Both the position numbers and the translations under genes were made by a program. From the IMG/VR virus record IMGVR_UViG_2526164600_000002: a stretch of DNA of 50,850 nt; one strand, 5' to 3'. Numbering within the stretch: position 1 is the stretch's first letter; every line of letters starts with the position of its first letter. Source of the DNA: a virus. Taxonomy: Duplodnaviria > Heunggongvirae > Uroviricota > Caudoviricetes. The notes beneath the pieces were generated by a model, which was given only the letters and a program-made list of their open reading frames with translations, was not told where the DNA came from and ran no database searches. Shown piece by piece: positions 4,567-44,302 of the stretch.

Positions 4567-5142
4567 CTACGGCAGTGCTGGCCATTCAATATCCTGTGAA
4601 GTTGACGTATCAACACGGTTCAGCAATACCCGATACTTTTTCCATGCTTCCAGCAACGAGATTTCTTCCTCCGTTGCAATTTCCAGATCTGCAGCATCCT
4701 GAAGCGGCGCAATATGCTCACTGGCTACCTGCATCAGGTTGTTTTTTATTTCTTCCGCCTCCCGGATCCGGAACAGTTTTTCTGCTTCCGTATCCTTCAC
4801 CCAGGCTGTGCCGTTCCACTTCTGAAACTCTCCTTCCGGCGATAACCAGGTAACATTTTCCGGTAACGGACCGAGTTCAGAAATAAATAACGCGTCGCCG
4901 GAAGCCACGTCATAAACCGTTTTACCCCGATGATCTTCAACGAGATGCCACGATGACTCATCACTGTTGAAAACAGCCACGAAGCCTGCCGGAATATCTG
5001 GCGGTGCAATATCGGTACTGTTTGCTGGCAGACCTGTATGAGGCGGAATATATGCATCACCTTCACCAATAAATTCATTAGTTCCGGCCAGCAGATTATA
5101 AATTTTTATGGTCCGTGGTTGTTCACTCATTCTGAATGCCAT
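4567..5142 (-). CDS. tfa: Tail fibre assembly protein (Tfa)
   Basis: ORF track 191 aa; follows stf with overlapping stop/start; lambda-like Tfa family. Confidence 0.85.
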
Positions 5143-8100
5143 TATGCAAGCCTCACAATATAGTTAAATGCGATGTTTTTGACGGTGTTTTCCGCGTTAC
5201 CAGCAGCGTTAACGGTGATGGTGTGTCCATGTGAACCAATCGCAACGGAGTGCGTATGAGCACCAATACCGACAGTATGCGCGTGTGCACCTGCAGATGC
5301 TGCTGTGCCGGACAGTGAGTGGCTATGATTACCATCTGTACTGGTATTAGCTAACCACCCCGTAGACATACCTACTGAGCCTTGTACACCCCAGGTATTT
5401 TGACCTGAGCTTGTATAACCATATTGATAAGTATCTTTAAAAACACTGGGGTTAAATCGACGGCCATCTCTATGGCTGTGATTACCAGCTGCATTCGTGC
5501 TGCCACTTAAACTATGGGTATGCGCACCAGTGTTATTCGTGGATTTAGTGCCGTAATCAAACGACGATGTGGTTTTCGTCCCCAAATCCGTACTGGATGC
5601 GCTGGCGCTGTGGGTATGCGATTTAATGCCGTCCTGTTCCTGAGACAATACGGCCCGACCACTGGCAGGTTTGCCCTTAATCGTCCAGCCACGCATATCA
5701 GGGATCACGCCTGACGGATAAGCCGCTGCAAGTTTCGGGTATGCAGATTTGTCAAAAGCCTGCCCCTGCATCAGGGCATAACCAGACGGAACGGTATCTG
5801 ATGGCCACGGGATTGGTGCGCCGACTGGGTAGCTTTCTGGTGGAAGATTTTTCGAGGTATAAACTTCTGCCCAGTCTTCCTCAAAACCATAGCCATCTCT
5901 TGAGGAACGGTAGAACAGACCTCCATTTCTGTAATGTGCCTTCATCTGCAAGGTCCGGCAACTTCCGACTCCGGTATAGAAGTTAACCAGAATATAGGTG
6001 TCGCCAGAGCGGGTGACATTGTAAGCGCCTGATTCGGCATTCCAGGGAACGCCACCATCCGCATCGGCATATGTATCCGTTGCCCTTCTGGCAAAAGCAG
6101 CCACATGCGCGGCGGTTAAAGTAATATCTTTGGAACCATCAAACTCAACACCAGAAACCCGTCTTGGCGTTTGCAGCTTTGTTGCTGTTAATGCATTACC
6201 GTTCAGACTTGCGGACAGTTTGGTTCCAATAACCAGTTCGCCGGTTGCGTTATCAATAGAAAACGGTCTTAATGTATTCCAGCCACCATAAACATCACCT
6301 TGATTGGTAAGCAGCAGGTGAGTTTTAGCGCCATCATTACGCCATAATGCACCATACTCCCCACCTATCATTCGAATCTGATTACCACCACGCGCTACAA
6401 TTTCGTCTGTGGCAAAAAGTTTTTTGCACGACAAGTTATCGTTAACGATTAACGAATTAGACTCATAAAAACCACGCCCACTCTTAAAATCAAGGATAAC
6501 GTCCGCCGCGATACATTCAGTCGCCGGATTTGTTGCCCCAAACTTATAGGTCGTATCATTAACAACGAGATCAGCACCAGGTGCGGATATTGACAGGCCA
6601 TCTTCGATAAACGCAAAAACAGGGAAAGCTGCGCCATCAACATAGAACACAGAGCGCAAATCATCGCCCTTATTACTCATCATTATTGAGTGGATGGCTC
6701 GTTCATTGTTTTGATATTGCCAGAACATTCCATAAGCATAACGCCCCCTGTCAGTCCAGCCGCCAGGCATAACAAATCCGTTAAACTCGCAGTTATTCAT
6801 CGGATCGCCTGCGGTTCGCGTTGCCGTGGTGATAATGACCCTTGATGCCAGTTCGCTTACTGAGCCAGCAGAACGCATAACAACAACAGGGTAATATTTT
6901 CCAGATGTTGCACCTGCAGGAGCGTTAACCCGCACATAACGCATACCACGCTTATCAGCAAAGTCTGTTTTACTGACCGCGTTAATGTTGTTCAGGAAGC
7001 GTCCCTTATCGGGTATATCAGCGCCGTTCTGGTCTTTCTGCAGACGTTTCTCTGCATTGTCATAGGCTGATTTTACTGCCTTTGGCGTTGCCGCCAGCGT
7101 TTCAGACGTACTGTTGGTCGCACTGCTTAGCTGAACTATCCCTTTCTGTGCTGTCGTTGCATCCTGTGCGGTGTATTTCCCGTTAGCCAGGTCATACGCG
7201 GCCTTAACGGCTTTTGGTGTTGCCGCCAGTGACTCGGAAGTGCTGTTAGTCGCACTACTGAGCTGTACTATCCCCTTTTTCGTCGTGCTCGCATCCTCAA
7301 GCGCCACGGCGGATGCAATATCCTCTGCCCGTTTTGCCGCTGTCTCAGCGCGCGTTGCTGCAGATTCCGCCGTACTTTTGCTCTGAGCTGCTGCCGTCGC
7401 ACTGCCAGCAGCCTCTGTCGCCTTCGTGGATGCCGTCGTGGCGCTGCCCTTCGCTGCTGACGCCTGTCTGGTCGCCTCATCTTTTGAAGCAGACGCCGAT
7501 GATGCCGATGACGCCGCCGAACTGGCGGACGATGCCGCTGCCGTTTTTGAGGATTCTGCACGGGTTTCCGACGCTTTTGCGTTCGTTTCGGATGTCTTCG
7601 CTGCGGAAGCAGACCTCGCTGCTGCCGTGGCCTGCTCAGTGGCTTCGCCAGCCTTCGTTGTGGCTGTTGAAGCAGACGATGCGGCACTTTCTGCCGACTT
7701 TCCGGCAGCGGTGGCACTGGCTGAGGCCTGCCCGGCACTTGTTGACGCGGCGCTGGCAGATGATGCAGCCGCTGTTTTTGAGCCTGCCGCAGCCGAGGCG
7801 CTCTGTCCCGCTGCCGTTTCAGAAGACCTGGCGTTCGTCTCGGACGTTTTTGCCGCCTTCGCGGAATTTCCTGCCGCCGTTGCCGAGGAAGCGGCACTAC
7901 TGGCGCTCGATGATGCGTTCGTTTCTGATGATTTTGCCGCCTCTTTTGAAGCCGACGCATCCCGTGCTGAAGTGGCTGCTTCTGACGCTTTCGTGGTCGC
8001 GGTGGATGCAGAAGTGGCTGCTGATTGTTGTGACGCTGCCGCATTCGTTTCTGACGTTTTCGCCGCACCGGCACTGGTAGCCGCCGCGCTTTTTGAGGAC

Positions 8101-34328: not shown

Positions 34329-35081
34329 TTATCTCGTCACCTTCCTCAATTGCGCTTCCGCGTATGCTTCTTCCTGCCAGCACTTTGTTACCAGTTTACC
34401 AATGACGTCCGCATACCCCTTATACCACTGATAATCGGTCAGGTCTGGTACCAGCTTCTGGACATGACGTCGTGCCAGCGTGGTCGGTAAACGACTAAAC
34501 CGGTTTCCATTACAACGCCCACAAATCTTATATACCGGTACGCCATGAAACCGGGTTCTTTTTTCATCCAGAACAATCCCTTTACCCTTACACCCTCTGC
34601 ACGCTGTGCTGGCTTCGCCCTTACCATGGCAATGCTGACATAGTTCCTTCACCCATTCTTCCTTGATTACAGATTCCCCGCGTCTGTAGTGTTTCACCAC
34701 TTCGCGCAATACATTATAAAATCCCGTACCTGAACAATGCTCACAGCGAGCCTTACTTGCCGCAGACCTGGAGTAATCAGCAAAGGCAAAACTCACGAGG
34801 TAAGGAATAATCTGTAACCGGATTTCTTCACTCAATTTGTTCAATGTCGGGTTATCCAGTGCCATCGCGTAATTTAGCAGGCCTTCAATCGCAAACTGAG
34901 GGTCCTGAACACCAACTTTTGCCAGAAATAAGGCCAACCCAAGTGGTGCTTTCGACTGCACCATCCCCTGCGCTGCCATTACATCCGTAATTGTTAAACA
35001 ACCGGTGCCTGTCGCTGGAGCGTCATCGCTCAATTTTGGAGATTTTGGGGAGTAATATTTTGGTAAGGCTTCAAGGTTCAT
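34329..35081 (-). CDS. quuQ: Late-gene antiterminator Q (zinc-finger CxxC..CxxC)
   Basis: ORF 34329..35111; 250 aa from MNLEALPK; Cys-rich motifs CEHCSGTG...CQHCHGKG...CRGCKGKG...CGRC. Confidence 0.85.
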   Translation of the reverse strand: MNLEALPKYYSPKSPKLSDDAPATGTGCLTITDVMAAQGMVQSKAPLGLALFLAKVGVQDPQFAIEGLLNYAMALDNPTLNKLSEEIRLQIIPYLVSFAFADYSRSAASKARCEHCSGTGFYNVLREVVKHYRRGESVIKEEWVKELCQHCHGKGEASTACRGCKGKGIVLDEKRTRFHGVPVYKICGRCNGNRFSRLPTTLARRHVQKLVPDLTDYQWYKGYADVIGKLVTKCWQEEAYAEAQLRKVTR

Positions 35082-35094
35082 GCTCGTTCTCCAC

Positions 35095-36144
35095 TTACGC
35101 CAGTACGCCAATTGCCAGCGCGCGATCGATAAAACGAAATATCAGCTCCAGTTGGGAGCCATACTTATCTTCAAATGCCACTGTATCCGTATGCAGCTCG
35201 TTGTGATGCTTTCTGCACAAAGGCAACACAAAGAGATCATGTGCTTTTGTTCCCATTCCGCCCTGCCCGTGACCAATCAGATGATGCGGATCGTCGGCTG
35301 GCATACCGCAGCAAGCACACGGCTGTGTCTTAACCCAACGTGTGTATTTCTCCTTAACCCAGCGGCGACGTTTAGGCAGCTTCATGAAAGATTCCGGAGA
35401 CTCTGGATCAACGGTGATGCTTACCACCGTCTTTTCCTGTGGTGATTTTTGTTGCTGGTGGGCGTAAGGCAACGGTGCAAGATTTTTTGTGCGTTGTTTC
35501 AATATGCTGGTGGCGGTCTGCTCTCCCGGTACGATGTCGCTTTCGCGGTACACCGAGCAGATTTTTTCCGCTGGTAATCCCAGCGAACGACGCGATACAG
35601 CCTCAGGTAGTGCATCCACCACCTGATTGCAGACCGTCCACCAGGATAATTCAGCCAAAGATAATTCCCGCTCCTGCGTACCGCTTATTGCGTGACGGAT
35701 GACGTCAATCACCCATGCTGTCAGATTTTGTTGAGCAAGCAGCTCCAGTGATTCCGATGTCTGGTCACGCAGTTGGTTGTCGCAGTGCCAGCACAACACC
35801 ATTGCGCCGGTACCATAACGGTGAATGACTGTTTCAGTGTGATGGTAATCGCCATTAGGCCACTGGCAGGATGTAACATGACGTAATAGCCAGTCGGACA
35901 ATGCGCCAACGCCGCCAGCAGCACGAATCACCCGTTCGTTACTAAAAAACGGCAGCAATGTTTTGTCTTCCGCCAGCGGCTGGCGAACGGCAGGAACGAC
36001 TCCGGATGGCAGATTACGCATGCTTTTTGGTTCCGGTTCCACCAGCACTCGAGGATTATGAAATATCTGTATGGATTCACGGCCCGGCTTAAGGACCACC
36101 AGCCCAAGCTCAGGCACCAGAACAGGTCTAAGTAATACCCGCAC
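35095..36144 (-). CDS. ydfU: YdfU-like protein (DUF968) with C-terminal HNH-like nuclease motif
   Basis: ORF 35095..36183; GTG start at codon 14 gives 349 aa; CCGMPADDPHHLIGHG...CRKHHNELH motif. Confidence 0.7.
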   Translation of the reverse strand: MRVLLRPVLVPELGLVVLKPGRESIQIFHNPRVLVEPEPKSMRNLPSGVVPAVRQPLAEDKTLLPFFSNERVIRAAGGVGALSDWLLRHVTSCQWPNGDYHHTETVIHRYGTGAMVLCWHCDNQLRDQTSESLELLAQQNLTAWVIDVIRHAISGTQERELSLAELSWWTVCNQVVDALPEAVSRRSLGLPAEKICSVYRESDIVPGEQTATSILKQRTKNLAPLPYAHQQQKSPQEKTVVSITVDPESPESFMKLPKRRRWVKEKYTRWVKTQPCACCGMPADDPHHLIGHGQGGMGTKAHDLFVLPLCRKHHNELHTDTVAFEDKYGSQLELIFRFIDRALAIGVLA

Positions 36145-36145
36145 G

Positions 36146-36424
36146 TTACCTCCAGATCCGTTGCTGGAAAGTGCGGGACGCACGTGGTGGGCGTTCGGAA
36201 TAAGGCAGCCTGACAGAGATTATCCAGTGCCGATAGTCGAGACTGAGAGCTTTCTTAACCTCGAACCCGCGCCTGCGGTAAGAATGAATCAGCCATTCGG
36301 CCTGTTCTGCAGTGCATGGAGGGTGCTGGAACCATTCAGACTTGAATGCGTGAGAATACCGCCCGTGCGTGCAGGCAAGAACGGGCGAATTATCAGAATT
36401 GTAATATTTTGCGTTGCGTGCCAT
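36146..36424 (-). CDS. Hypothetical protein, 92 aa, overlapping the 5' end of ydfU
   Basis: ORF track only. Confidence 0.3.
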   Translation of the reverse strand: MARNAKYYNSDNSPVLACTHGRYSHAFKSEWFQHPPCTAEQAEWLIHSYRRRGFEVKKALSLDYRHWIISVRLPYSERPPRASRTFQQRIWR

Positions 36425-36490
36425 CGGTTTTCTCCGGTGGCACGGTGTTACTCAGCGGGAGTTCAGCCCCGCGCAAGATTGTAGATGAGT

Positions 36491-36742
36491 TTATTCTCCT
36501 GAAAAAGCAGAAAAGCCAGCTTTTATTCCGATCTCTTTCAATGCCTGTAATGAAGTGACAAACTCACCTTCGCGCAAGATAAATCCGTCCGTGACCCGAG
36601 CATCCACAAAATTAATTAACGCAGCCCCATTCTTTCGCAAACACATAATGCGGTAATGACTAACAAGATTTCCATTTTCAACGCACACAGCATAGAGGCC
36701 ATCTTCACAAAAAATTTTACGCAGTTCTTCGATGTTCATCAT
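36491..36742 (-). CDS. rem: Rem-like small protein (83 aa)
   Basis: ORF track; length and position match rem of Qin (between ydfU and hokD). Confidence 0.5.
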   Translation of the reverse strand: MMNIEELRKIFCEDGLYAVCVENGNLVSHYRIMCLRKNGAALINFVDARVTDGFILREGEFVTSLQALKEIGIKAGFSAFSGE

Positions 36743-36857
36743 CAGAATCCTTCCGGATAATTAGCTCTCCCCTTTAAGGGACCATCCCTCTTATCCCTGC
36801 GCGCTACTTAAGTATTTTTGATTCTATTCCGGCACCGTCCAGAACTTCAAACGCGTT

Positions 36858-36890
36858 GAAAATAAAAACAAAAACCCGCCGAAGCGGGTT
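36858..36890 (-). terminator. Rho-independent terminator at 3' end of hokD mRNA (hairpin AACCCGC/GCGGGTT plus T-run on minus strand)
   Basis: Inverted repeat 36873-36890 preceded by A-rich run on plus strand. Confidence 0.5.
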
Positions 36891-36958
36891 AAGTGCGGGT
36901 GCGTTGAGGATGCCTGCCACATCAGAGGTGGCGAGGGATTTCTCCCCCGCCGGGTCTC

Positions 36959-37114
36959 TTACTCCTCAGGTTCGTAAGCTGTGAAGACAGCGACCTCCGT
37001 CTGGCCGGTTCGGATTCGTACCTCGCAGAGGTCTTTCCTCGTTACCAGTGCCGTCACTATGACGGTTAAACAGATGACGATCAGGGCGATTAACATCGCC
37101 TTTTGCTGCTTCAT
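36959..37114 (-). CDS. hokD: Hok-family type I toxin HokD (RelF), 51 aa
   Basis: Manual translation MKQQKAMLIALIVICLTVIVTALVTRKDLCEVRIRTGQTEVAVFTAYEPEE; below the 60-aa ORF-track cutoff. Confidence 0.85.
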   Translation of the reverse strand: MKQQKAMLIALIVICLTVIVTALVTRKDLCEVRIRTGQTEVAVFTAYEPEE

Positions 37115-37185
37115 AGCCTGCTTCTCCTGTCAACGCAAAGCAGAAGTGTCACCTTCGGTGCGAAACAGAGATGTCATGCTTTGGT

Positions 37186-37473
37186 TCAGAGAATGCGTTT
37201 GACCGCCTCGCTATATACTTCCGAGCGTTCTCTTTTCCCAACAGAAATCACGAAAACGACAACTTTCTCGTCTATAACCTGGTATACAAGGCGATAGCCT
37301 GAAGACCGGAGCTTAATCTTGTAACAATCAGGCATACCACGGAGCTTGTTTGCTTCAATCCGGGGTGACTCAAGTACTTCAACCAGCTTCTTTTTCAACT
37401 GTTCACGTACCGTCGAGCCCAGCTTTCGCCATTCCTTTAGTGCCCGCTCGTCAAAATCCAGAAAATACGCCAT
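37186..37473 (-). CDS. relE: RelE mRNA interferase toxin
   Basis: ORF track 95 aa. Confidence 0.9.
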   Translation of the reverse strand: MAYFLDFDERALKEWRKLGSTVREQLKKKLVEVLESPRIEANKLRGMPDCYKIKLRSSGYRLVYQVIDEKVVVFVISVGKRERSEVYSEAVKRIL

Positions 37474-37712
37474 CAGAGTTCATCCAGCGTCACACGTACT
37501 GGCTTAGGATTACGAAGCCGTTCTTTCACTATCTCCACAAGTTCAGCATCTTCATCACTCAGGAGTGTCTGTTTGAACGGCAAGCGTTCATTGTCAGCGA
37601 TATACTCGAGCATGAGACGAAGCGCTTCAGAAGGAGTTACACCCATTTTTTCAAGCGCGGCGTAAGAACGCGCTTTAAGTTCATCGTCAATACGCAGGTT
37701 AATGCTACCCAT
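37473..37712 (-). CDS. relB: RelB antitoxin
   Basis: ORF track 79 aa; overlaps relE start. Confidence 0.9.
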   Translation of the reverse strand: MGSINLRIDDELKARSYAALEKMGVTPSEALRLMLEYIADNERLPFKQTLLSDEDAELVEIVKERLRNPKPVRVTLDEL

Positions 37713-37723
37713 GTCTTACACCT

Positions 37724-37749
37724 CTTGTAATTACAAATGTCATTACAAG
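37724..37749 (-). promoter_or_regulatory. relBE operator region with inverted repeats (TTGTAATTACAA and CTTGTAATGACA)
   Basis: Palindromes read directly upstream of the relB RBS. Confidence 0.55.
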
Positions 37750-38042
37750 TATCGCACTACAACATGCTTAGGGCAAGTCACGAAGGAAGTCAGAAAGTAG
37801 TCGTAAGAACGGTGATCACTGTCCGCTTTGTGCCAGGAGCAGCCATTGCTAAGTCCATCCTGTATTGTGCAGGTCAGCTCGTTTTTAAAGAGTCCGGCCA
37901 TCATCTTACTGGTACAGACACCATATACTTTGTGACGGTCAGGCTACATATGCACAACTCAACTTATTCATCTATTTTTTGCTTTAGCATGTCAGTGTTG
38001 CTTTCTCGTCGGCGGGTGAGCGGTGACCTGACCTGTCGATAA
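37737..38042 (+). CDS. Hypothetical protein, 101 aa (position and length of ydfV in Qin)
   Basis: ORF track; no motif; composition not strongly protein-like. Confidence 0.3.
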   Translation: MSLQVSHYNMLRASHEGSQKVVVRTVITVRFVPGAAIAKSILYCAGQLVFKESGHHLTGTDTIYFVTVRLHMHNSTYSSIFCFSMSVLLSRRRVSGDLTCR

Positions 38043-38244
38043 AGGAACGTAACACGTTTTATGCAACACCCGCATGCGGCAGAAAATTATTGCCGAACGT
38101 TTACCCCTGTCAACAAGCTTTACTTTCTGAGGCGCGCCAGCCCGCGAGGAAAACAATCTGAACATCAAACAATTAATGACACAAGAAATACGATTAAAGA
38201 TTTTTTTGTACATGCCGATAGTGCTTTTTTAAAAGGAGAAATCT

Positions 38245-38577
38245 ATGTCTGTCACAATTCAGGGAAATACCTCAACCGTTATTTCAAACAACTCCGCCCC
38301 GGAAGGAACATCAGAAATAGCCAAAATCACAAGACAAATTCAGGTGCTGACTGAAAAGCTTGGGAAAATCTCATCGGAAGAGGGGATGACGACACAGCAG
38401 AAAAAAGAAATGGCTGCATTGGTACAGAAGCAAATTGAAAGCCTCTGGGCTCAACTGGAGCAGTTGTTAAGGCAGCAGGCAGAGAAAAAGAATGAAGACG
38501 CGACAGTTCAGCCTGATAAAAAAGAAGAGAAAAAAGACGATACAAATACCGCTGGCACCATTGATATTTACGTCTAA
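38245..38577 (+). CDS. flxA: FlxA-like protein (110 aa, Gln/Lys/Glu-rich)
   Basis: ORF track; recognised as FlxA of Qin. Confidence 0.8.
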   Translation: MSVTIQGNTSTVISNNSAPEGTSEIAKITRQIQVLTEKLGKISSEEGMTTQQKKEMAALVQKQIESLWAQLEQLLRQQAEKKNEDATVQPDKKEEKKDDTNTAGTIDIYV

Positions 38578-38591
38578 GTGACAGCCGTATT

Positions 38592-38614
38592 GTGGCCCTC
38601 ATCGGGCCACTTTT
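38592..38614 (+). terminator. Rho-independent terminator after flxA (GTGGCCC-TCATC-GGGCCAC then TTTT)
   Basis: Inverted repeat and T-run read directly. Confidence 0.55.
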
Positions 38615-39013
38615 CGCCATCAGCCTTTTCTTTAAAGACATATTATCTTTGTATCATTTCTGATAGTTAACATTACAAGATATAAGTAATGGACGCACTC
38701 CCAATTAGTCTATTTAAATCGCCACGAGTTTAACTGACAACCCATGATCAATTATGAATTGCAACTATTTCTGTAGTCACTTTTGTGGGGACAGTCCACA
38801 AAACTGCCAACTTCCGCTTCTTGCTCTTAGCGGACATTAGCATAGGCTATTTACCATAACGCCTCATTACGCGCACCGCCCAGACTGACTCAGCGCGTTT
38901 CTGGCATATCCCCGGTAAAACAAGTAACAAACCACCCGAAAATGAACACCAGAAACGCGACTTAAGAATCTACCCTATGAATGGATATGCACTCAACCGA
39001 ATCGATCTTGGTT

Positions 39014-40354
39014 TCAATCTTTTTTATCGGGATCAGGCTTCTTTTTAGGTAACTTCGGGGGCTTAACTTGCTGATGACTTTGCGTTCGGCGCGTAAGCCA
39101 GGGATGGTCAGCTTTAGGTTTAACATAGTATTTTGAGCGTAAATCAATACGGGCATTATCCACTCGTTCATGGACACTCTTTTCATCATCCAGTGGTATA
39201 GGCTCCGGGCCATCAACATACTTTTCCCAGCCCAGCGCTTTCCCGTCATACAGAACGTTAATTTCACCGTCAAAGTTCTCGCATACAGTAACAACCGAAT
39301 GCCTAAGTCGATATCCCCGGCTCTCACTGCGTACCTGAAACGCACTGCTTTTGTACTGGAAAGTGAGATTTTTAGACAGAACGCGCTTCGCCTGTAGGCT
39401 GAAGATATAACCCAGTTCCTCTTCAGAATGGTGCACATCAAGATGAGCATTATCAGTAGTACGAGGCGACGTAGCGAACCGGTTGTTATAGGCTTCAATA
39501 AAGGTCGGCAACCATGCATTTGCTGTTTCAATATCACTGATATTCTGAAGCCGCATTTCTTTGACCAGCCTGTCCTGTAGTGTCTGATTGGCGCGCTCTA
39601 CCCGCCCTTTTGCCTGCGGGCTGTTGGCATGGATTGGCTCGATGCCCAGTGTCTTTATCGCACGAGTGAACTGGGTCAGCTCACCTTCCCGCTCTGGGTT
39701 ATTTACCCTGAATATACTGTGTCTATCAGAGTAGAGAGCGAGCGGTACGCCACGATCATTAAGGTAACCCCGGAGGGTTTCCATGTAAGCCCGGGTTGTT
39801 TCAGCAGGCACAAAACGCAACGCCATCAACGCACTGGTGGCATCATCAATGAAAACGATCAGTGTACATCTGGGGCCTCGATTTTCAAACCAGTCATGAG
39901 GTGAGCCATCAATCTGGATCAGTTCACCGTAAGATGGTCGTCGCATGCGGCGTTGATATATACGGGCAATTTTACGACGGCGTTCACGCCATAACCCCTC
40001 TTCTATCATCCACTTTCTGAGAGTTTCAACGGATAAAGATAAACCGTGTATCTCGCGCAATTTTTCGCACGCAAACGTAGGTCCAAAATCAGCGTAACGG
40101 CCTTTGAGGAGTGAAATTACTGTTGCTCTGAATTCAGTAGAAAAGGAATTATTAGGACGCTTTCCACGTCGGTGGGAAACCAGACCAGAAGGCCCTTCAT
40201 TTCTATACCGTTGCACCAGACGTTTAACCTGCCGAATAGAAATGCCAATGCGTGCCGCAGCTTGTTCCTGAGTAATATGTCGATTAATTGACTCCTGAAT
40301 AATCTGAAGTCGGTGGAGTTCCTTATGACTCATCGTAACAGTCTCTTTGATCAT
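39014..40354 (-). CDS. DDE (integrase-core) transposase, IS481-like family (tentative), N-terminal HTH
   Basis: ORF track 446 aa; HTH region ARIGISIRQVKRLVQRYRNEG; DDE-type motifs IQIDGS...YSDRHSIF...PQAKGRVERANQTL. Confidence 0.8.
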   Translation of the reverse strand: MIKETVTMSHKELHRLQIIQESINRHITQEQAAARIGISIRQVKRLVQRYRNEGPSGLVSHRRGKRPNNSFSTEFRATVISLLKGRYADFGPTFACEKLREIHGLSLSVETLRKWMIEEGLWRERRRKIARIYQRRMRRPSYGELIQIDGSPHDWFENRGPRCTLIVFIDDATSALMALRFVPAETTRAYMETLRGYLNDRGVPLALYSDRHSIFRVNNPEREGELTQFTRAIKTLGIEPIHANSPQAKGRVERANQTLQDRLVKEMRLQNISDIETANAWLPTFIEAYNNRFATSPRTTDNAHLDVHHSEEELGYIFSLQAKRVLSKNLTFQYKSSAFQVRSESRGYRLRHSVVTVCENFDGEINVLYDGKALGWEKYVDGPEPIPLDDEKSVHERVDNARIDLRSKYYVKPKADHPWLTRRTQSHQQVKPPKLPKKKPDPDKKD

Positions 40355-40729
40355 GAAAAATCCCCCAGAGAATTGTCTGGGGACATTTTAGAATGGTTCA
40401 AAGGGGACATTACAGCTTGGTGTTAACAATAGCCTGCTTCTCCGTGCCTTTCGGCACGTAAGAGGCTAACCTACATGTGTCTAGCATGAAATTGGCCTCA
40501 GATTAATGTTAAGCGTCTTGCAGGACGCGTAATGTTAACTGGGGCTTTTCTCTATCTGCCGTTGGTGTCCATGCCCGAGGCAGATAGCCTCAAGCACCCG
40601 CAGTCATTCTACTTAACTAAGATTTCCCCGCAAACCGTTTTTGTCCAGCACAGTAAATATCCAACTAAACCAATGGAGTTCGCTGTATTTACCGCCAGTA
40701 TTCAATGCACATGACCGCCATGAACACCC

Positions 40730-40867
40730 CTAAAAAAGGGCATTTATATATCCAAATATTAATATCAAAACATCAACTTTTTCCATATACCTTGCTGTGA
40801 AGATGATGGGCATACATGATGCGAACAACCAGAACGCAACAAACAAAAACTGCAATGCGTTTTTCAT
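40730..40867 (-). CDS. Candidate small hydrophobic protein (about 45 aa) with strong Shine-Dalgarno AGGAGG
   Basis: Manual translation MKNALQFLFVAFWLFASCMPIIFTARYMEKVDVLILIFGYINALF; below ORF-track cutoff. Confidence 0.3.
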   Translation of the reverse strand: MKNALQFLFVAFWLFASCMPIIFTARYMEKVDVLILIFGYINALF

Positions 40868-42018
40868 TATTCCTCCTACAATCAATGTGCAATTACATTT
40901 AAACACACCTCAATTTGGCCGGACATATAAATATCTAAACCAGAAAAAATCACTTACATAGCGTTACAAACTCTTTAGTCTAAAGGTTCATCGTAAAACA
41001 TTCCCCATACTTATCAGTCCGTTCCGCGCCAGGTAGCTCATTGCCTTATCTGGCAACCTGTAATCAGGTTTCCGCTTTTTCAGTTGGCTGGTCGTTTAAC
41101 CGACATAGTTAATCCATTAATCTAGTTGCCGGATGTTGGTGGATTTTCGCGTTTTAGTTGTTCATAAAAGTGCACAGCTTTAACCAGTTCTTCTGATGTA
41201 ACCGGGACTGGTGAGGCAGTGAATAAGGCCTGAATTTGATAGTTCGGCCTGTCGTTACAATCCTCTTTTTTCGGTACATATTTCCAGTCACCAGACCACT
41301 ACTTCCCCTGAAAGTCCGTAACGCTTTTTTCACGTAGCGATATCGCCATGCCACTGGTTTTGCTTGCCCCGCCGTTTCATGCCCTTCCTGATAATTAATC
41401 TCGCTCATTCATCGCCCCACTCATCACAATATGCTTCGACCGGAGTTTTTCCCGCTTCATAGTCATCACGTTAGGATTCGACATCAGCAGCACTTCCACC
41501 GCGTAATTCACCATAGTCCATTAATAGTTCATCCCGCTCTTCAAAACTGATGTTATATTTAGCTGAACAAAAATCAGCCACTTTGTTCTTCCTCATCGTC
41601 TTTTATTTCGTGGTATGAGTAATTGCAGTAGTTAAAGAAAATTTCTTATGCTCCGTCATGAATTTCATCAGGTGTTGCGTCATCGTCCACTTCGAATACA
41701 TCCTCAAAATCTCCACCAGCTATTTCCGTTTCAATAATAATTTTGAACTTTCGCATTTCACTACCGCCCTTTCGGGCGGCCTCCTGATGTTCTGAGGGTG
41801 CAGAAATCCATCCGGTTAAGGATTAAGTTTTATTTACAGAACTGAATTTAATTATTCAGATATACGTATCTGTAACCTTACGAATCTACTCACTGGATGC
41901 CTCTTTCATAAAAATAATCCAGTGGGTTTTATCGTTTTTTCCCTGTTCGTTGACAGATAACAGGCTTTCTATCTGTCAGTGCCAGAATCTGGCTTACCGG
42001 TATTTGCGTTTCATTCCA

Positions 42019-42375
42019 TTAAAAAATCAGAACGCCGTGCGGCCTCAACACCCGAAAAGCTTCTTTAAATCTCTGTCGCAAATCATCACGCCAGGCATCT
42101 TTATTCAGCCGTCCATATTTCTTTCCCATCCAGGCGTTATCACCAACACGCTCAAGATGCGGAGGGTCTAATACAACCATCGAAAAAGATGCGTCTGCAA
42201 ATGATAATGCACGAAAATCTGCGATAATGTCAGGGCTGATAATCAAGCGTCTCCCATTGCGTAATGTGTATCCTTCTTTTCTGATATCGCTGAATATCGC
42301 CCGTTTGTCAGACTTATCGAACCAGAACATGCGGCTGCCACAGCACATATCAAGAATGGTTGCCGGTGCACTCAC
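42019..42375 (-). CDS. Putative SAM-dependent methyltransferase fragment (motif I-like LDMCCGS and motif IV-like DPPH), probably truncated
   Basis: ORF track 118 aa; motifs read from translation; too short for a complete methyltransferase. Confidence 0.45.
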   Translation of the reverse strand: MSAPATILDMCCGSRMFWFDKSDKRAIFSDIRKEGYTLRNGRRLIISPDIIADFRALSFADASFSMVVLDPPHLERVGDNAWMGKKYGRLNKDAWRDDLRQRFKEAFRVLRPHGVLIF

Positions 42376-42794
42376 TGCGCCACGTCCTGAAAATTACCCT
42401 GATAGAAAGCCAGTATGCGCTGCATAACTTCGCTCTTCCGGCACTCGCGACAGATTATGTTTAGGCGACTGTCGTAGCGACGTATTTCTCCGTCAGGTGA
42501 TGACCAGATAAGGTCCGGATCAACCATAGCAGGTTTCTTCACCTTTGCCCTCGAGAGTTTTTTGCGGGCGTTTTGCCAGTCCTTACGCGCCTGTTCAGAG
42601 GGGAATAACCCGTAGCCGGAGTTGTATACATCGCCACTGGCTACCAGCTCTCTGGCAAGAACGCTCATCAGATATCTAGTCGCACCTGTTTTAGCTTCCA
42701 GTTGCCGTAACGTCTCACGGCCGCTCTGGCGCACGAGTTCCACCACCTGCCATTTAATTTTTTCCCGCTCTTCTTGTGTAAAAACTTTTGCCAC
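42372..42794 (-). CDS. Hypothetical protein, 140 aa, downstream of replication gene
   Basis: ORF track; stop overlaps the start of the methyltransferase-like ORF. Confidence 0.45.
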   Translation of the reverse strand: MAKVFTQEEREKIKWQVVELVRQSGRETLRQLEAKTGATRYLMSVLARELVASGDVYNSGYGLFPSEQARKDWQNARKKLSRAKVKKPAMVDPDLIWSSPDGEIRRYDSRLNIICRECRKSEVMQRILAFYQGNFQDVAQ

Positions 42795-42834
42795 AAGTCC
42801 CCCTTAAAATTACCTCATGACCTGAAATCAACAC

Positions 42835-43854
42835 TTATCCTCTGAAACCAGGCGGAATTTCTGTATCCGGTTCAGAAATATGATTAACACAACGCTGTAC
42901 AGGTGAACGTCCCAGGCGGATGACCAGTTCGTCCCATTTTTCGCGGAGCTTTGACGGGCTCATGATGTTTTTTACCCAGAATGGATCTCGCTGAACCCGA
43001 CCAAACATTTCGCAAATTTGTCTGTGGCTTCTGCCATCCAGCATCCGCATTGTGCGCACGTCATTGGCCCAGGCAGTCCAGTTAGGCTCTTTTGGTCGCA
43101 TGATCTCGCCATCATCACTGGCTGCCTGTTCGTAGAGACCCACGATCCGCCCCCAGATCCACTGCGCACACGCCAAATCCTCCCTGCTACCCCACTGGCG
43201 TTTTTTCGCACTAAACACAACCGCGTCGGAGTTCCGGGTTAAAGAATCCTGTTCAGTCGTCTGCGGGTCCGGTTGCGAAGCTTCCGGACGAAAAGTGTTT
43301 TTATTCTCTGTAGTAATCTCTGTTGTATTCTCTGTAAGATCATCAGGCCATTTTGACCCGATGACATTGGGTCGTTTTGAACCAATGGAGCGTTTCATTT
43401 TGACCTCTTCCATCGTGTCATTTTGACCTGATGGAGCGGCGCATTTTGAACCGATGGATTCGCTCAATTTGCCACCATCTAAAAGCTCGCTCCCATAGTT
43501 GATCGTGTAGAAATTGGTCATATCGCGCTTTGATTTATTGAGCTTTTCACAACGCAAAAGCCCCAGCGTTTTCAGACTTGCAAACGCGCGCTTTAACGTT
43601 GACTCTGACCAGAATGGGAACTGTTCCAGCCATTGTTCCGTTGTGTTATAAATCCAGCGAACACCATCACATTCCATGCCGGAGTTGGTATCTCTCAACC
43701 AGTAGTGCAGTTGTTGCAAAACAATGGCTTCGTTTAAGCCAATTTTCATTGCCAGCTGCGTGTTTATAACCAGTGGGCGTTCAGCAAAAAGAAGGCTCAT
43801 AATTCCATCCAGCTTTTTGTTGGTATTGCTGTCGATACGCAAGCTTGAAAGCAA
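42835..43854 (-). CDS. Phage replication initiation protein (lambda O-like replisome organiser) with internal iterons
   Basis: ORF track 339 aa; N-terminal HTH-like region; repeated SIGSK peptide encoded by DNA iterons; position after cro-like gene. Confidence 0.7.
   Translation of the reverse strand: MLSSLRIDSNTNKKLDGIMSLLFAERPLVINTQLAMKIGLNEAIVLQQLHYWLRDTNSGMECDGVRWIYNTTEQWLEQFPFWSESTLKRAFASLKTLGLLRCEKLNKSKRDMTNFYTINYGSELLDGGKLSESIGSKCAAPSGQNDTMEEVKMKRSIGSKRPNVIGSKWPDDLTENTTEITTENKNTFRPEASQPDPQTTEQDSLTRNSDAVVFSAKKRQWGSREDLACAQWIWGRIVGLYEQAASDDGEIMRPKEPNWTAWANDVRTMRMLDGRSHRQICEMFGRVQRDPFWVKNIMSPSKLREKWDELVIRLGRSPVQRCVNHISEPDTEIPPGFRG
43349..43460. repeat. Five directly repeated iterons (consensus CATTTTGA(C/A)C-GATGGAG, about 23-bp period) inside the replication gene; candidate phage origin
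   Basis: Repeats read at about 43349, 43373, 43396, 43419, 43442; AT-rich tract on the 3' side (43290-43340). Confidence 0.7.
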
Positions 43855-44302
43855 TTGCTTTTTCTATAAGTTCGTCAGTTTCACGATCCACTACGGCAGG
43901 ATCAGCAAAAAGCAGTCCGGACTCCACCACATCGCCATATTCTTTGTTTAACCCGGCGATCATGCACGTGATGCTTTTTCCGTCAGTAATTTCACGATAC
44001 AACCTGAAATCACTAATCCGGATAGCCTCCATAATCGCAGGCACTAGCGCCGTGAACTTTTCACGCTTATCCCTGGTGTCGATAGCCTTCCAGCGTTCGA
44101 ATATCTTCACTCGATTAACACCAAGCGCTCGCTGATCAACCGCGCCACCTTCATCTGTGACACGCTGAACATCGATGTTCGGGCGCTCTTTCAAAGCCCA
44201 GAATGCTTCAGTGATTAATATCGTCGCCTGCTCCTGTGTCATTCCTGGTCGACATATCCAGGCATCCAGAGCCTCACGAGCCTGTTCAGGAGTGATTTTC
44301 AT
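43781..44302 (-). CDS. Hypothetical protein, 173 aa, in the cII position (possibly the full-length form of YdfX)
   Basis: ORF track; position between cro-like dicC and the replication gene. Confidence 0.45.
   Translation of the reverse strand: MKITPEQAREALDAWICRPGMTQEQATILITEAFWALKERPNIDVQRVTDEGGAVDQRALGVNRVKIFERWKAIDTRDKREKFTALVPAIMEAIRISDFRLYREITDGKSITCMIAGLNKEYGDVVESGLLFADPAVVDRETDELIEKAIAFKLAYRQQYQQKAGWNYEPSFC

Follow-up and report, generated by a model that had tools for sequence, protein, structure and literature searches.

The question raised by this locus is whether a stretch of phage DNA that is poor in genes still encodes small proteins or is a ruin, and what to make of a short hydrophobic open reading frame (ORF) that lies in it behind a consensus ribosome-binding site. 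The stretch occupies positions 40461-42018 of IMG/VR record IMGVR_UViG_2526164600_000002, whose 50,850 nucleotides are the whole stretch of DNA analysed and are referred to here as the window. The window represents a defective lambdoid prophage of the Qin type from Escherichia coli, and we put at about 0.8 the probability that 40461-42018 is a decayed stretch, read from the minus strand, that runs from the replication genes to the hok-rem-ydfU-Q block. As a scar of prophage decay it is ordinary. What deserves attention is that a transposon carrying relBE, and apparently seeking out hok, has cut a hok/sok locus in two at its left border, and that the hydrophobic ORF, which has 59 codons in its native form, probably represents a protein family of its own. 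The coordinates of the features are collected in Table 1.

The 1.7 kb around 40461-42018 match segments of many E. coli chromosomes at 99.9% identity, and at least 80% of this query is covered in 1237 of 5426 complete E. coli genomes. Gene order in those genomes starts with dicA/dicC, a YdaT-like gene, the gene for phage replication protein O and a gene for a DUF977 protein, continues with a methyltransferase pseudogene, a gene for a DUF7167 protein, a frameshifted hypothetical gene and an ISEsa1-family transposase gene, and ends with ydfW, flxA, ydfV, relB, relE, hokD and rem; this order, from dicA/dicC to rem, identifies the element as the Qin prophage. E. coli K-12 MG1655 shares 99.96% identity with window positions 34550-39198, after which homology restarts only at 44023, the point at which the K-12 pseudogene ydfX begins. 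K-12 therefore lacks window positions 39199-44022, and with them the whole of 40461-42018. While its relBEF operon lies in the same prophage and has the same relB-relE-hokD arrangement, K-12 Qin is without the body of the transposase gene, the orphaned hok leader, sok, the 59-amino-acid ORF and the decayed genes that are described below; its ydfW is exactly the final 49 codons of the ISEsa1-type transposase (window 39014-39163). Since the region is deleted from K-12, this copy of the 59-amino-acid ORF cannot have been studied in that strain.

A reading made earlier from the letters of the window (hereafter the sequence-only reading) had reported that the segment has no long ORF, and we agree: the longest that overlaps it encodes 84 amino acids (41154-41408, minus strand). 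It had also pointed to protein-like pieces in different minus-strand frames, leaving open whether these were genuine small genes or the products of decay. They derive from the small genes that lie between the replication genes and Q in lambdoid genomes, and they have decayed; intact versions of them exist in related phages. Both of the peptides that it quoted correspond to minus-strand ORFs, MRKFKIIIETEIAGGDFEDVFEVDDDATPDEIHDGA to an ORF of 36 amino acids at 41756-41646 and MRKNKVADFCSAKYNISFEERDELLMDYGELRGGSAADVES to one of 41 amino acids at 41596-41471, and when intact phage proteins were used as tblastn queries, a 60-amino-acid and a 58-amino-acid gene were matched over their full length across the stops in the window. 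Four known small phage genes are pseudogenes here, namely those for a methyltransferase, a DUF7167 protein, a phrog_519-type protein of 58 amino acids and an Ea22-like protein; an in-frame TAA stops three of them, and the fourth is frameshifted and has suffered an internal loss.

In the DUF7167 gene, codon 37 is TAA where the intact gene has a codon for Lys, and the remaining 23 of the 60 codons are conserved. At 24.1 bits, the 36-amino-acid fragment stays slightly below the PF23768 cut-off of 24.4, with profile positions 1-33 of 60 covered, and an intact homolog matches phrog_1997 at 9e-31. Translated across the TAA, the 60-codon frame has 88% identity over residues 1-60 with the intact 60-amino-acid protein of vB_EcoS-640R1 (tblastn), a member of phrog_1997, and the DUF7167 gene of the window is therefore a pseudogene. 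The 58-amino-acid gene has TAA where the intact gene has a codon for Trp, and residues 1-58 of the intact protein are matched at 83% identity by window positions 41581-41408 (tblastn); the intact homolog matches the C-terminal part of phrog_519 at 4.5e-23. The Ea22-like gene has lost its middle, and what is left of it, an N-terminus (MSEINYQ...) and 46 codons at the other end, survives in separate frames; the N-terminus matches phrog_660, positions 41137-40991 match residues 159-204 of a 204-amino-acid homolog from prophage L007 (tblastn), and the Prokaryotic Genome Annotation Pipeline (PGAP) marks the gene as a pseudogene in relatives. The methyltransferase ORF sits just to the right of 40461-42018 and its tail enters the segment; it has partial matches to the Pfam families Methyltransf_11 and N6_N4_Mtase, and the homologous locus is labelled 'frameshifted; internal stop' by PGAP and reaches to about window position 41887. 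Intact genes for the 60-amino-acid DUF7167 protein, the 58-amino-acid protein and the Ea22-like protein occur in conserved order and on the same strand in vB_EcoS-640R1, in the Rac prophage of strain 442/2 and in two further prophages (L007 and L008). Those of vB_EcoS-640R1 and Rac 442/2 are homologous to the genes of the window and likewise lie between the replication genes and hok, whereas the copies in the window are broken by in-frame TAA codons or frameshifts. As the frames stay conserved beyond the stops and match intact proteins there, decay is the correct reading. Three neighbouring genes each have an in-frame TAA beyond which the frame is conserved, and these three consecutive stops are most simply explained as ordinary decay that has become fixed in the Qin lineage.

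The segment also occurs, at 99.2% identity, in Escherichia phage PhiR42_1 (PV340562.1; host ECOR13), which was deposited as a complete phage genome of 48.7 kb, and the copy there includes the transposon and a 36-amino-acid DUF7167 allele with the identical in-frame stop. This deposit tempers the picture of a ruin, since the loss of these genes need not mean that the element is dead as a whole; if PhiR42_1 is viable, the genes of the segment are dispensable.

At its left end the segment has features that the sequence-only reading had overlooked: one half of a hok/sok locus (40428-40727) and the junction with a transposon. The left 270 bp consist of the hok promoter, the hok leader, the start of mok and the sok gene, all of them separated from hokD. 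Window positions 40599-40428 score 104.1 bits against Rfam model RF01794 (gathering score 59) and cover the whole model, positions 1-157. The hok -10 box (TAGAAT) is found at 40611-40606, the mRNA leader starts at 40599 and the ATG of mok is at 40487. The final AUG of RF01794, which is the start codon of hok, is AUU in the window, homology stopping inside the start codon at 40429, and the mok frame enters the transposon and ends after 25 codons. In comparison with an intact phage hok locus, positions 1-300 of the latter match window 40727-40429 at 94% identity, its positions 285-548 match window 37128-36864 at 98% identity, and the two pieces overlap by 15-16 nt. The sok gene retains its -10 box (TAACCT, 40467-40472) and the terminator stem of Sok, but its -35 box reads GTGCCT (40444-40449) against TTGCCT in intact loci. 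Of 42 loci with the transposon, 33 have this variant, which is absent from empty sites and so arose after the insertion; the same base change turns AAGGAG into ACGGAG on the hok strand. The locus thus resembles known hok/sok loci in its match to the covariance model over the whole length, its alignment with mokW/sokW of phage 933W, its mok start, its sok -10 box and its terminator stem, and differs from them in that the leader ends within the hok start codon, the toxin ORF lies behind relBE and the sok -35 box has a T-to-G change. It is half a locus and not a working toxin-antitoxin system. Weak Rfam matches to ceN48, STnc420 and SNORD79 were far below their gathering scores and were disregarded.

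The agent of this separation is a 3.3-kb relBE transposon, which cut the hok leader from the toxin at the hok start codon. Its right junction lies 33 bp to the left of 40461, and the unit carries relE, relB, ydfV and flxA as cargo together with the gene for the ISEsa1-type transposase (40354-39014, 446 amino acids). It begins with TGTCAACGC... at 37128 and ends with ...GTGTTAACA at 40428 (5'-TGT...ACA-3'), and apart from this pair of terminal repeats, neither strand of the window contains a match of 18/26 or better. The target-site duplication covers the Shine-Dalgarno sequence and the start codon of hok. The transposase scores 463.8 bits against the NCBIfam ISNCY model NF033594 (cut-off 250), has N-terminal helix-turn-helix domains and an rve core, and is labelled ISEsa1 family by PGAP. 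Empty sites complete the argument: in about 45 viral loci hok is uninterrupted and the 15-mer is present once, and the backbone of one of them (L044) is Qin and 99% identical to the window. A shorter unit, a 1.6-kb insertion sequence with its left end near 38809, was considered and rejected, as that position has no inverted repeat and no locus has a duplication 1.6 kb away.

Two observations concern the right-hand part of the transposon. In many near-identical relatives the alignment of the transposase gene with the window falls into two blocks, with an overlap of about 14 nt at 40279-40293 that implies a short duplication or indel at this point, and PGAP marks their transposase as incomplete; the ORF in the window is intact at 446 amino acids, and this copy may therefore be mobile. 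In addition, a terminator-like hairpin of 8 pairs followed by a T-run lies on the minus strand at 40362-40383, inside the right end and overlapping the start of the transposase gene, and could shield the transposase from transcription that enters via the hok promoter.

To the right of the hok leader lies the hydrophobic ORF. The sequence-only reading had described it as encoding 45 amino acids (MKNALQFLFVAFWLFASC...) and as following a consensus AGGAGG; the ORF does lie at the position given (40867-40730, minus strand) and does follow AGGAGG (40877-40872, 4 nt before the ATG), but the length is not the native one, as this is a truncated allele of an ORF of 59 codons. All seven aligned relatives have a run of seven T residues where the window has six (40732-40737), and it is the loss of this one nucleotide that brings in a stop after codon 45. 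With the seventh T restored, the product is MKNALQFLFVAFWLFASCMPIIFTARYMEKVDVLILIFGYINALFLGVFMAVMCIEYWR, and the 59-amino-acid form is found in 82 of 82 full-length loci. Not one complete E. coli genome matches the 291-bp module that contains the ORF at 100%, the best match being 99.7% over 292 nt. As none of the 1567 module-bearing genomes is identical to the window, the 45-amino-acid form is either a private allele or a sequencing error in a homopolymer. That the ORF is unannotated proved true of the relatives inspected, in which there is no RefSeq/PGAP feature. The 59-amino-acid protein has two hydrophobic stretches, seen as hydropathy peaks, and is predicted by AlphaFold from the single sequence to form a helical hairpin of residues 3-24 and 31-58 (mean predicted local distance difference test score, pLDDT, 82.6); the truncation deletes most of the second predicted helix.

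We believe that the 59-amino-acid ORF probably represents a real protein-coding family, a view based on sequence comparison in which the decisive test rests on one pair of lineages. The 291-bp module is present at 97% identity or more in 1567 of 5426 complete E. coli genomes (29%), and in each of the 83 loci examined the ORF directly adjoins the hok leader. The sequence-only reading had named a lack of conservation in related prophages as evidence that would count against it; conservation of this ORF extends, however, to about 1570 complete genomes, and there is a diverged 59-amino-acid relative besides. An exhaustive search with HMMER, together with a profile search, revealed a second subfamily (P0041/P0046) of exactly 59 amino acids with 41% protein identity to the first, and the two align at 58% DNA identity with no indel. 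They have in common the motifs W..xSCxPII.T and FG..NAL..GVF and a C-terminal IE.WR. The second subfamily occupies a prophage remnant between ttcA and genes for a Usp-family protein and a porin in 1045 of the 5426 genomes (19%), where no annotated feature covers it in the records listed, and directly downstream of it lies the 3' half of a hok gene with an in-frame stop. Both subfamilies therefore adjoin, on the upstream side, a hok locus or the remnant of one. Between the subfamilies the proportion of synonymous sites that differ (pS) is 0.72 and that of nonsynonymous sites (pN) 0.34 (Fisher p = 9e-5). Only the frame of the 59-amino-acid ORF is free of stops; the other five contain 2-10 stop-containing codons and have pN/pS ratios of 0.64-1.24. 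Purifying selection in this frame only is what leads us to regard the ORF as probably a real gene.

A number of points weigh against this view of the ORF and should be set beside it. The estimate of selection comes from 59 codons in one lineage pair, whose synonymous sites are close to saturation. Within the main subfamily, 82 loci yielded 6 alleles and 5 variable sites, and all five changes are nonsynonymous, though conservative; polymorphism at this level is uninformative, as DNA identity is at least 97%. Codon usage, scored with a log-odds model that had been trained on 22 of the window's long ORFs, did not set the ORF apart from its antisense frame, the ORF scoring -0.02 bits per codon and the antisense frame +0.10 to +0.15, against means of 0.215 for real coding chunks and -0.29 for non-coding chunks. 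Disrupted alleles, with frameshifts or junctions with unrelated sequence, are present in the databases, and the run of six T residues in the window could be a homopolymer sequencing error and not a mutation. The first protein search gave E. coli and Shigella sequences only, with no homologs beyond; Pfam, PHROGs, NCBIfam, PADLOC and a PDB sequence search had no match for the ORF; and a promoter scan found no promoter-like site upstream of it. A full-text literature search matched no paper to the 59-amino-acid peptide. Some apparent relatives did not survive inspection: the 'diverged' matches of the first protein search (74-85% identity) were junctions with unrelated sequence or frameshifted copies, and a supposed homolog at '53% identity' (L094) was a frameshifted copy at 95% DNA identity.

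The ORF might, alternatively, be open by chance, lying as it does on the T-rich strand of the AT-rich spacer upstream of hok, and would then owe its hydrophobicity only to T-rich codons, which specify Phe, Leu, Ile and Val. When the 351-nt spacer, with the ancestral seven T residues restored, was shuffled 5000 times with dinucleotides preserved, 15% of the shuffles contained an ORF that starts with ATG and has 59 codons or more. The codon-usage score that falls between the coding and non-coding means, the five nonsynonymous polymorphisms out of five, the absence of a PGAP call in the relatives inspected and the disrupted alleles, that of the window included, all fit a chance frame as well. However, once a preceding Shine-Dalgarno-like motif is also required, only 14 of the 5000 shuffles (0.3%) qualify, a figure that is suggestive, as it applies to one spacer and is less telling across all the spacers of a 50-kb window. 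A chance frame is also hard to square with a relative at 58% DNA identity that has exactly 59 codons and neither indel nor stop, with a pN/pS that is lowest in this of all frames, or with the motifs that the subfamilies share, and we consider it rather unlikely. Far less credible still is that the true gene of the spacer is an ORF on the plus strand, which encodes 83 amino acids in relatives, is called 'hornerin' or hypothetical in two phage records and is split in the window (40705-40800 and 40797-40961). It is open in relatives and its codon-usage score is marginally above that of the minus-strand ORF, but its ATG has no preceding Shine-Dalgarno motif, its product is a low-complexity sequence rich in Asn, Lys and Thr with no PHROG match, the plus-strand frames are those with stops and pN/pS of 0.64-1.24 and, since the strand opposite the second subfamily has no ORF longer than 33 amino acids, the plus-strand ORF is not conserved.

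If the ORF is accepted as a gene, its product might be a type I-like toxin or some other toxic membrane peptide, silenced by an antisense RNA or by a lack of transcription, as its small size, its strong hydrophobicity and its place beside a bona fide type I toxin locus would allow; truncated or disrupted alleles are also fairly common, as they might be for a costly gene. Nevertheless, two helices are predicted where Hok-like toxins typically have one, the opposite strand has no Rfam match except sok and no promoter-like site in 40700-41000 (by a consensus scan, which an unknown RNA could escape), PADLOC has no match for the ORF, and the second subfamily is intact in the prophage remnant of 1045 genomes although the neighbouring hok has been destroyed. 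Nothing that was found speaks specifically for a toxin, a reading that seems to us improbable. Much the same degree of doubt attaches to the idea that the short minus-strand ORFs of 36, 41 and 84 amino acids are genuine short genes and not products of decay. In some genomes PGAP does call the 36-amino-acid product a 'DUF7167 family protein' and the 41-amino-acid product a hypothetical protein, and these alleles are fixed in many copies of Qin; in other genomes, though, PGAP marks the same loci 'internal stop' or 'frameshifted', the frame beyond each TAA remains similar to the C-terminal end of the 60- or 58-amino-acid protein in its intact form, and in the 84-amino-acid ORF the phrog_660 match is limited to residues 2-40, the conserved C-terminus of the original gene lying in another frame.

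We therefore return to decay as the explanation of the short minus-strand frames, and to a real family as that of the 59-amino-acid ORF. Its product is most likely a helical hairpin in the inner membrane. Small inner-membrane proteins of prophages, such as superinfection-exclusion proteins, provide a lead. The ORF resembles superinfection-exclusion-type proteins in size, in having two predicted membrane helices, in its accessory position in a lambdoid prophage and in its retention in prophage remnants, and differs from them in that no sequence or profile similarity to a described family and no promoter of its own were detected. Our best guess, offered tentatively, is that it may be an accessory membrane protein of the prophage that acts, for example, in exclusion or in the modulation of Hok. 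An unannotated ORF with two predicted helices, one form of which is present in 29% and the other in 19% of complete E. coli genomes, merits attention in any case, and its fixed position beside phage hok loci is a starting point for questions about its function.

The coordinates given so far describe a single prophage, but the arrangement recurs. In at least five other hok-family loci, this unit or a related one with a different cargo occupies the equivalent place, with different duplications of 15-16 bp; four examples on plasmids are included in Table 1. A metagenome scan for the right end of the transposon returned 87 loci with 39 distinct flanks, of which about 30 are hok-family leaders that end at the Shine-Dalgarno/ATG region, just after the conserved GCCGNAAGGC hairpin. 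Each downstream flank repeat is preceded by the relE-side end, at a distance of 3.1-7.7 kb and never at 1.6 kb. This sampling of plasmids and metagenomes suggests that the transposon family targets hok-type loci in general.

Taken together, these results lead us to favour, on balance and with some reserve, a joint interpretation with two parts: that there is a site-specific family of ISEsa1-type transposons, with a left end beside relBE, which homes to the Shine-Dalgarno/start codon region of hok-family genes on phages and on IncF, IncI and IncK plasmids and makes duplications of 15-16 bp, and that the 59-amino-acid ORF is a new family of membrane proteins linked to phage hok modules. If this is true, each insertion uncouples Hok from mok/sok control and puts it behind relBE, and an insertion of this kind is the origin of the K-12 relBEF operon and explains why hokD (relF) is found there without sok and mok. 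Were it confirmed, it would be a case of an addiction module that hitch-hikes on a transposon which disarms the regulation of another module, and the ISfinder picture of ISEsa1 would be corrected in its length, its ends and its target duplication.

For the present state of the locus we propose the following model. The small genes would once have been read in an early rightward operon upon derepression of the prophage, no promoter of their own having been found. In this copy, the segment is unlikely to give rise to any full-length protein. The hok promoter may still fire a truncated leader into the end of the transposon, where it would meet the hairpin and T-run (40383-40362). Sok is perhaps made at a reduced level from its weakened promoter; it would have no target in cis, and could pair with the leaders of co-resident hokD-type loci, to which it is 94% identical. 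Finally, hokD would be expressed only as the third cistron of relBEF.

Table 1. Positions of the features discussed, in window coordinates unless another record is named, with the basis of each assignment.
Feature	Position	Strand	Basis or remark
5' half of hokD-type hok/sok locus	40428..40727	minus	Rfam RF01794, intact phage hok locus, 933W hokW/sokW
hokD coding sequence (toxin ORF)	36959..37114	minus	third gene after relB-relE, 3.3 kb from leader
Orphan Sok antisense RNA gene, approximate ends	40479..40549	plus	transferred from annotated sokW of phage 933W
Transposon, 3301 bp	37128..40428	minus	terminal repeats, filled versus empty sites
Target-site duplication, 15 bp, GGAGAAGCAGGCTAT on hok strand	right 40429..40443, left 37113-37127		perfect direct repeat
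Imperfect terminal repeats	left 37128-37153, right 40403-40428		19/26 (22/30) matching at termini
AGGAGG, ATG (40867) and 45-amino-acid hydrophobic ORF	40730..40877	minus	truncated allele; native 59-amino-acid end at 40689
Second-subfamily example, E. coli CP042246.1 (L101)	5001-5180 and 5235-5300 of L101		also L100, L102-L106
S-adenosylmethionine (SAM)-dependent methyltransferase ORF, 118 amino acids	42019..42375	minus	in-frame TAA (42019-42021), frame open for 29 further codons
DUF7167 / phrog_1997 gene	41577..41756	minus	in-frame TAA at codon 37 (41646-41648)
58-amino-acid phage gene	41408..41596	minus	in-frame TAA at 41471-41473; frame kept to ...CDEWGDE
Ea22-like / hypothetical gene remnant	40989..41408	minus	three-frame translation, tblastn, phrog_660
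Insertion in IncI Salmonella plasmid (L010), Hok/Gef-family (pndA-type) gene			duplication TGGAGGGGCTATGAT
Insertion in Enterobacter IncF plasmid (L097)			duplication GGAGAAGAAGGCCAT
Insertion in IncK E. coli plasmid (L098)			duplication TGGAGGGGCTGCGATG
Insertion in Citrobacter plasmid (L099), different cargo			duplication GGAGAAGAAGGCCATG

Parts of this picture have precedents. The integration of relBE into hokD was stated earlier by Ramisetty and Santhosh (2016), as cited in PMC6379469; beyond this general statement, neither the transposon nor a preference of it for hok loci was found described in our literature search. ISEsa1 has been given as 1609 bp with 'no TSD detected' (target-site duplication), and the IS1202 family as having target-specific relatives, TGT/ACA ends, imperfect terminal inverted repeats of about 24-26 bp and a long duplication (Harmer and Hall 2023, PMC10132070). 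The element described here agrees with the IS1202 family and ISEsa1 in its ISNCY-type transposase, its TGT...ACA ends, its imperfect repeats of about 26 bp, its long duplication and its target specificity. It differs from ISEsa1 in that the unit that bears the duplication is 3.1-7.7 kb long and always ends beside relE, and from the IS1202 family in that it inserts at the Shine-Dalgarno/start region of hok-family genes and not at dif/pdif sites. The 1.6-kb ISEsa1 of ISfinder appears to be the right-hand part only of a larger element.

One further junction was seen in a plasmid of Enterobacter hormaechei (NZ_CP085771.1, positions 3087-3098 of L011), in which a relE-side left end abuts the right end of a 91%-identical element with 15 bp (GGAGAAGAAGGCCTG) between the abutted ends; it looks like either a tandem insertion into a duplicated target or a circle junction.

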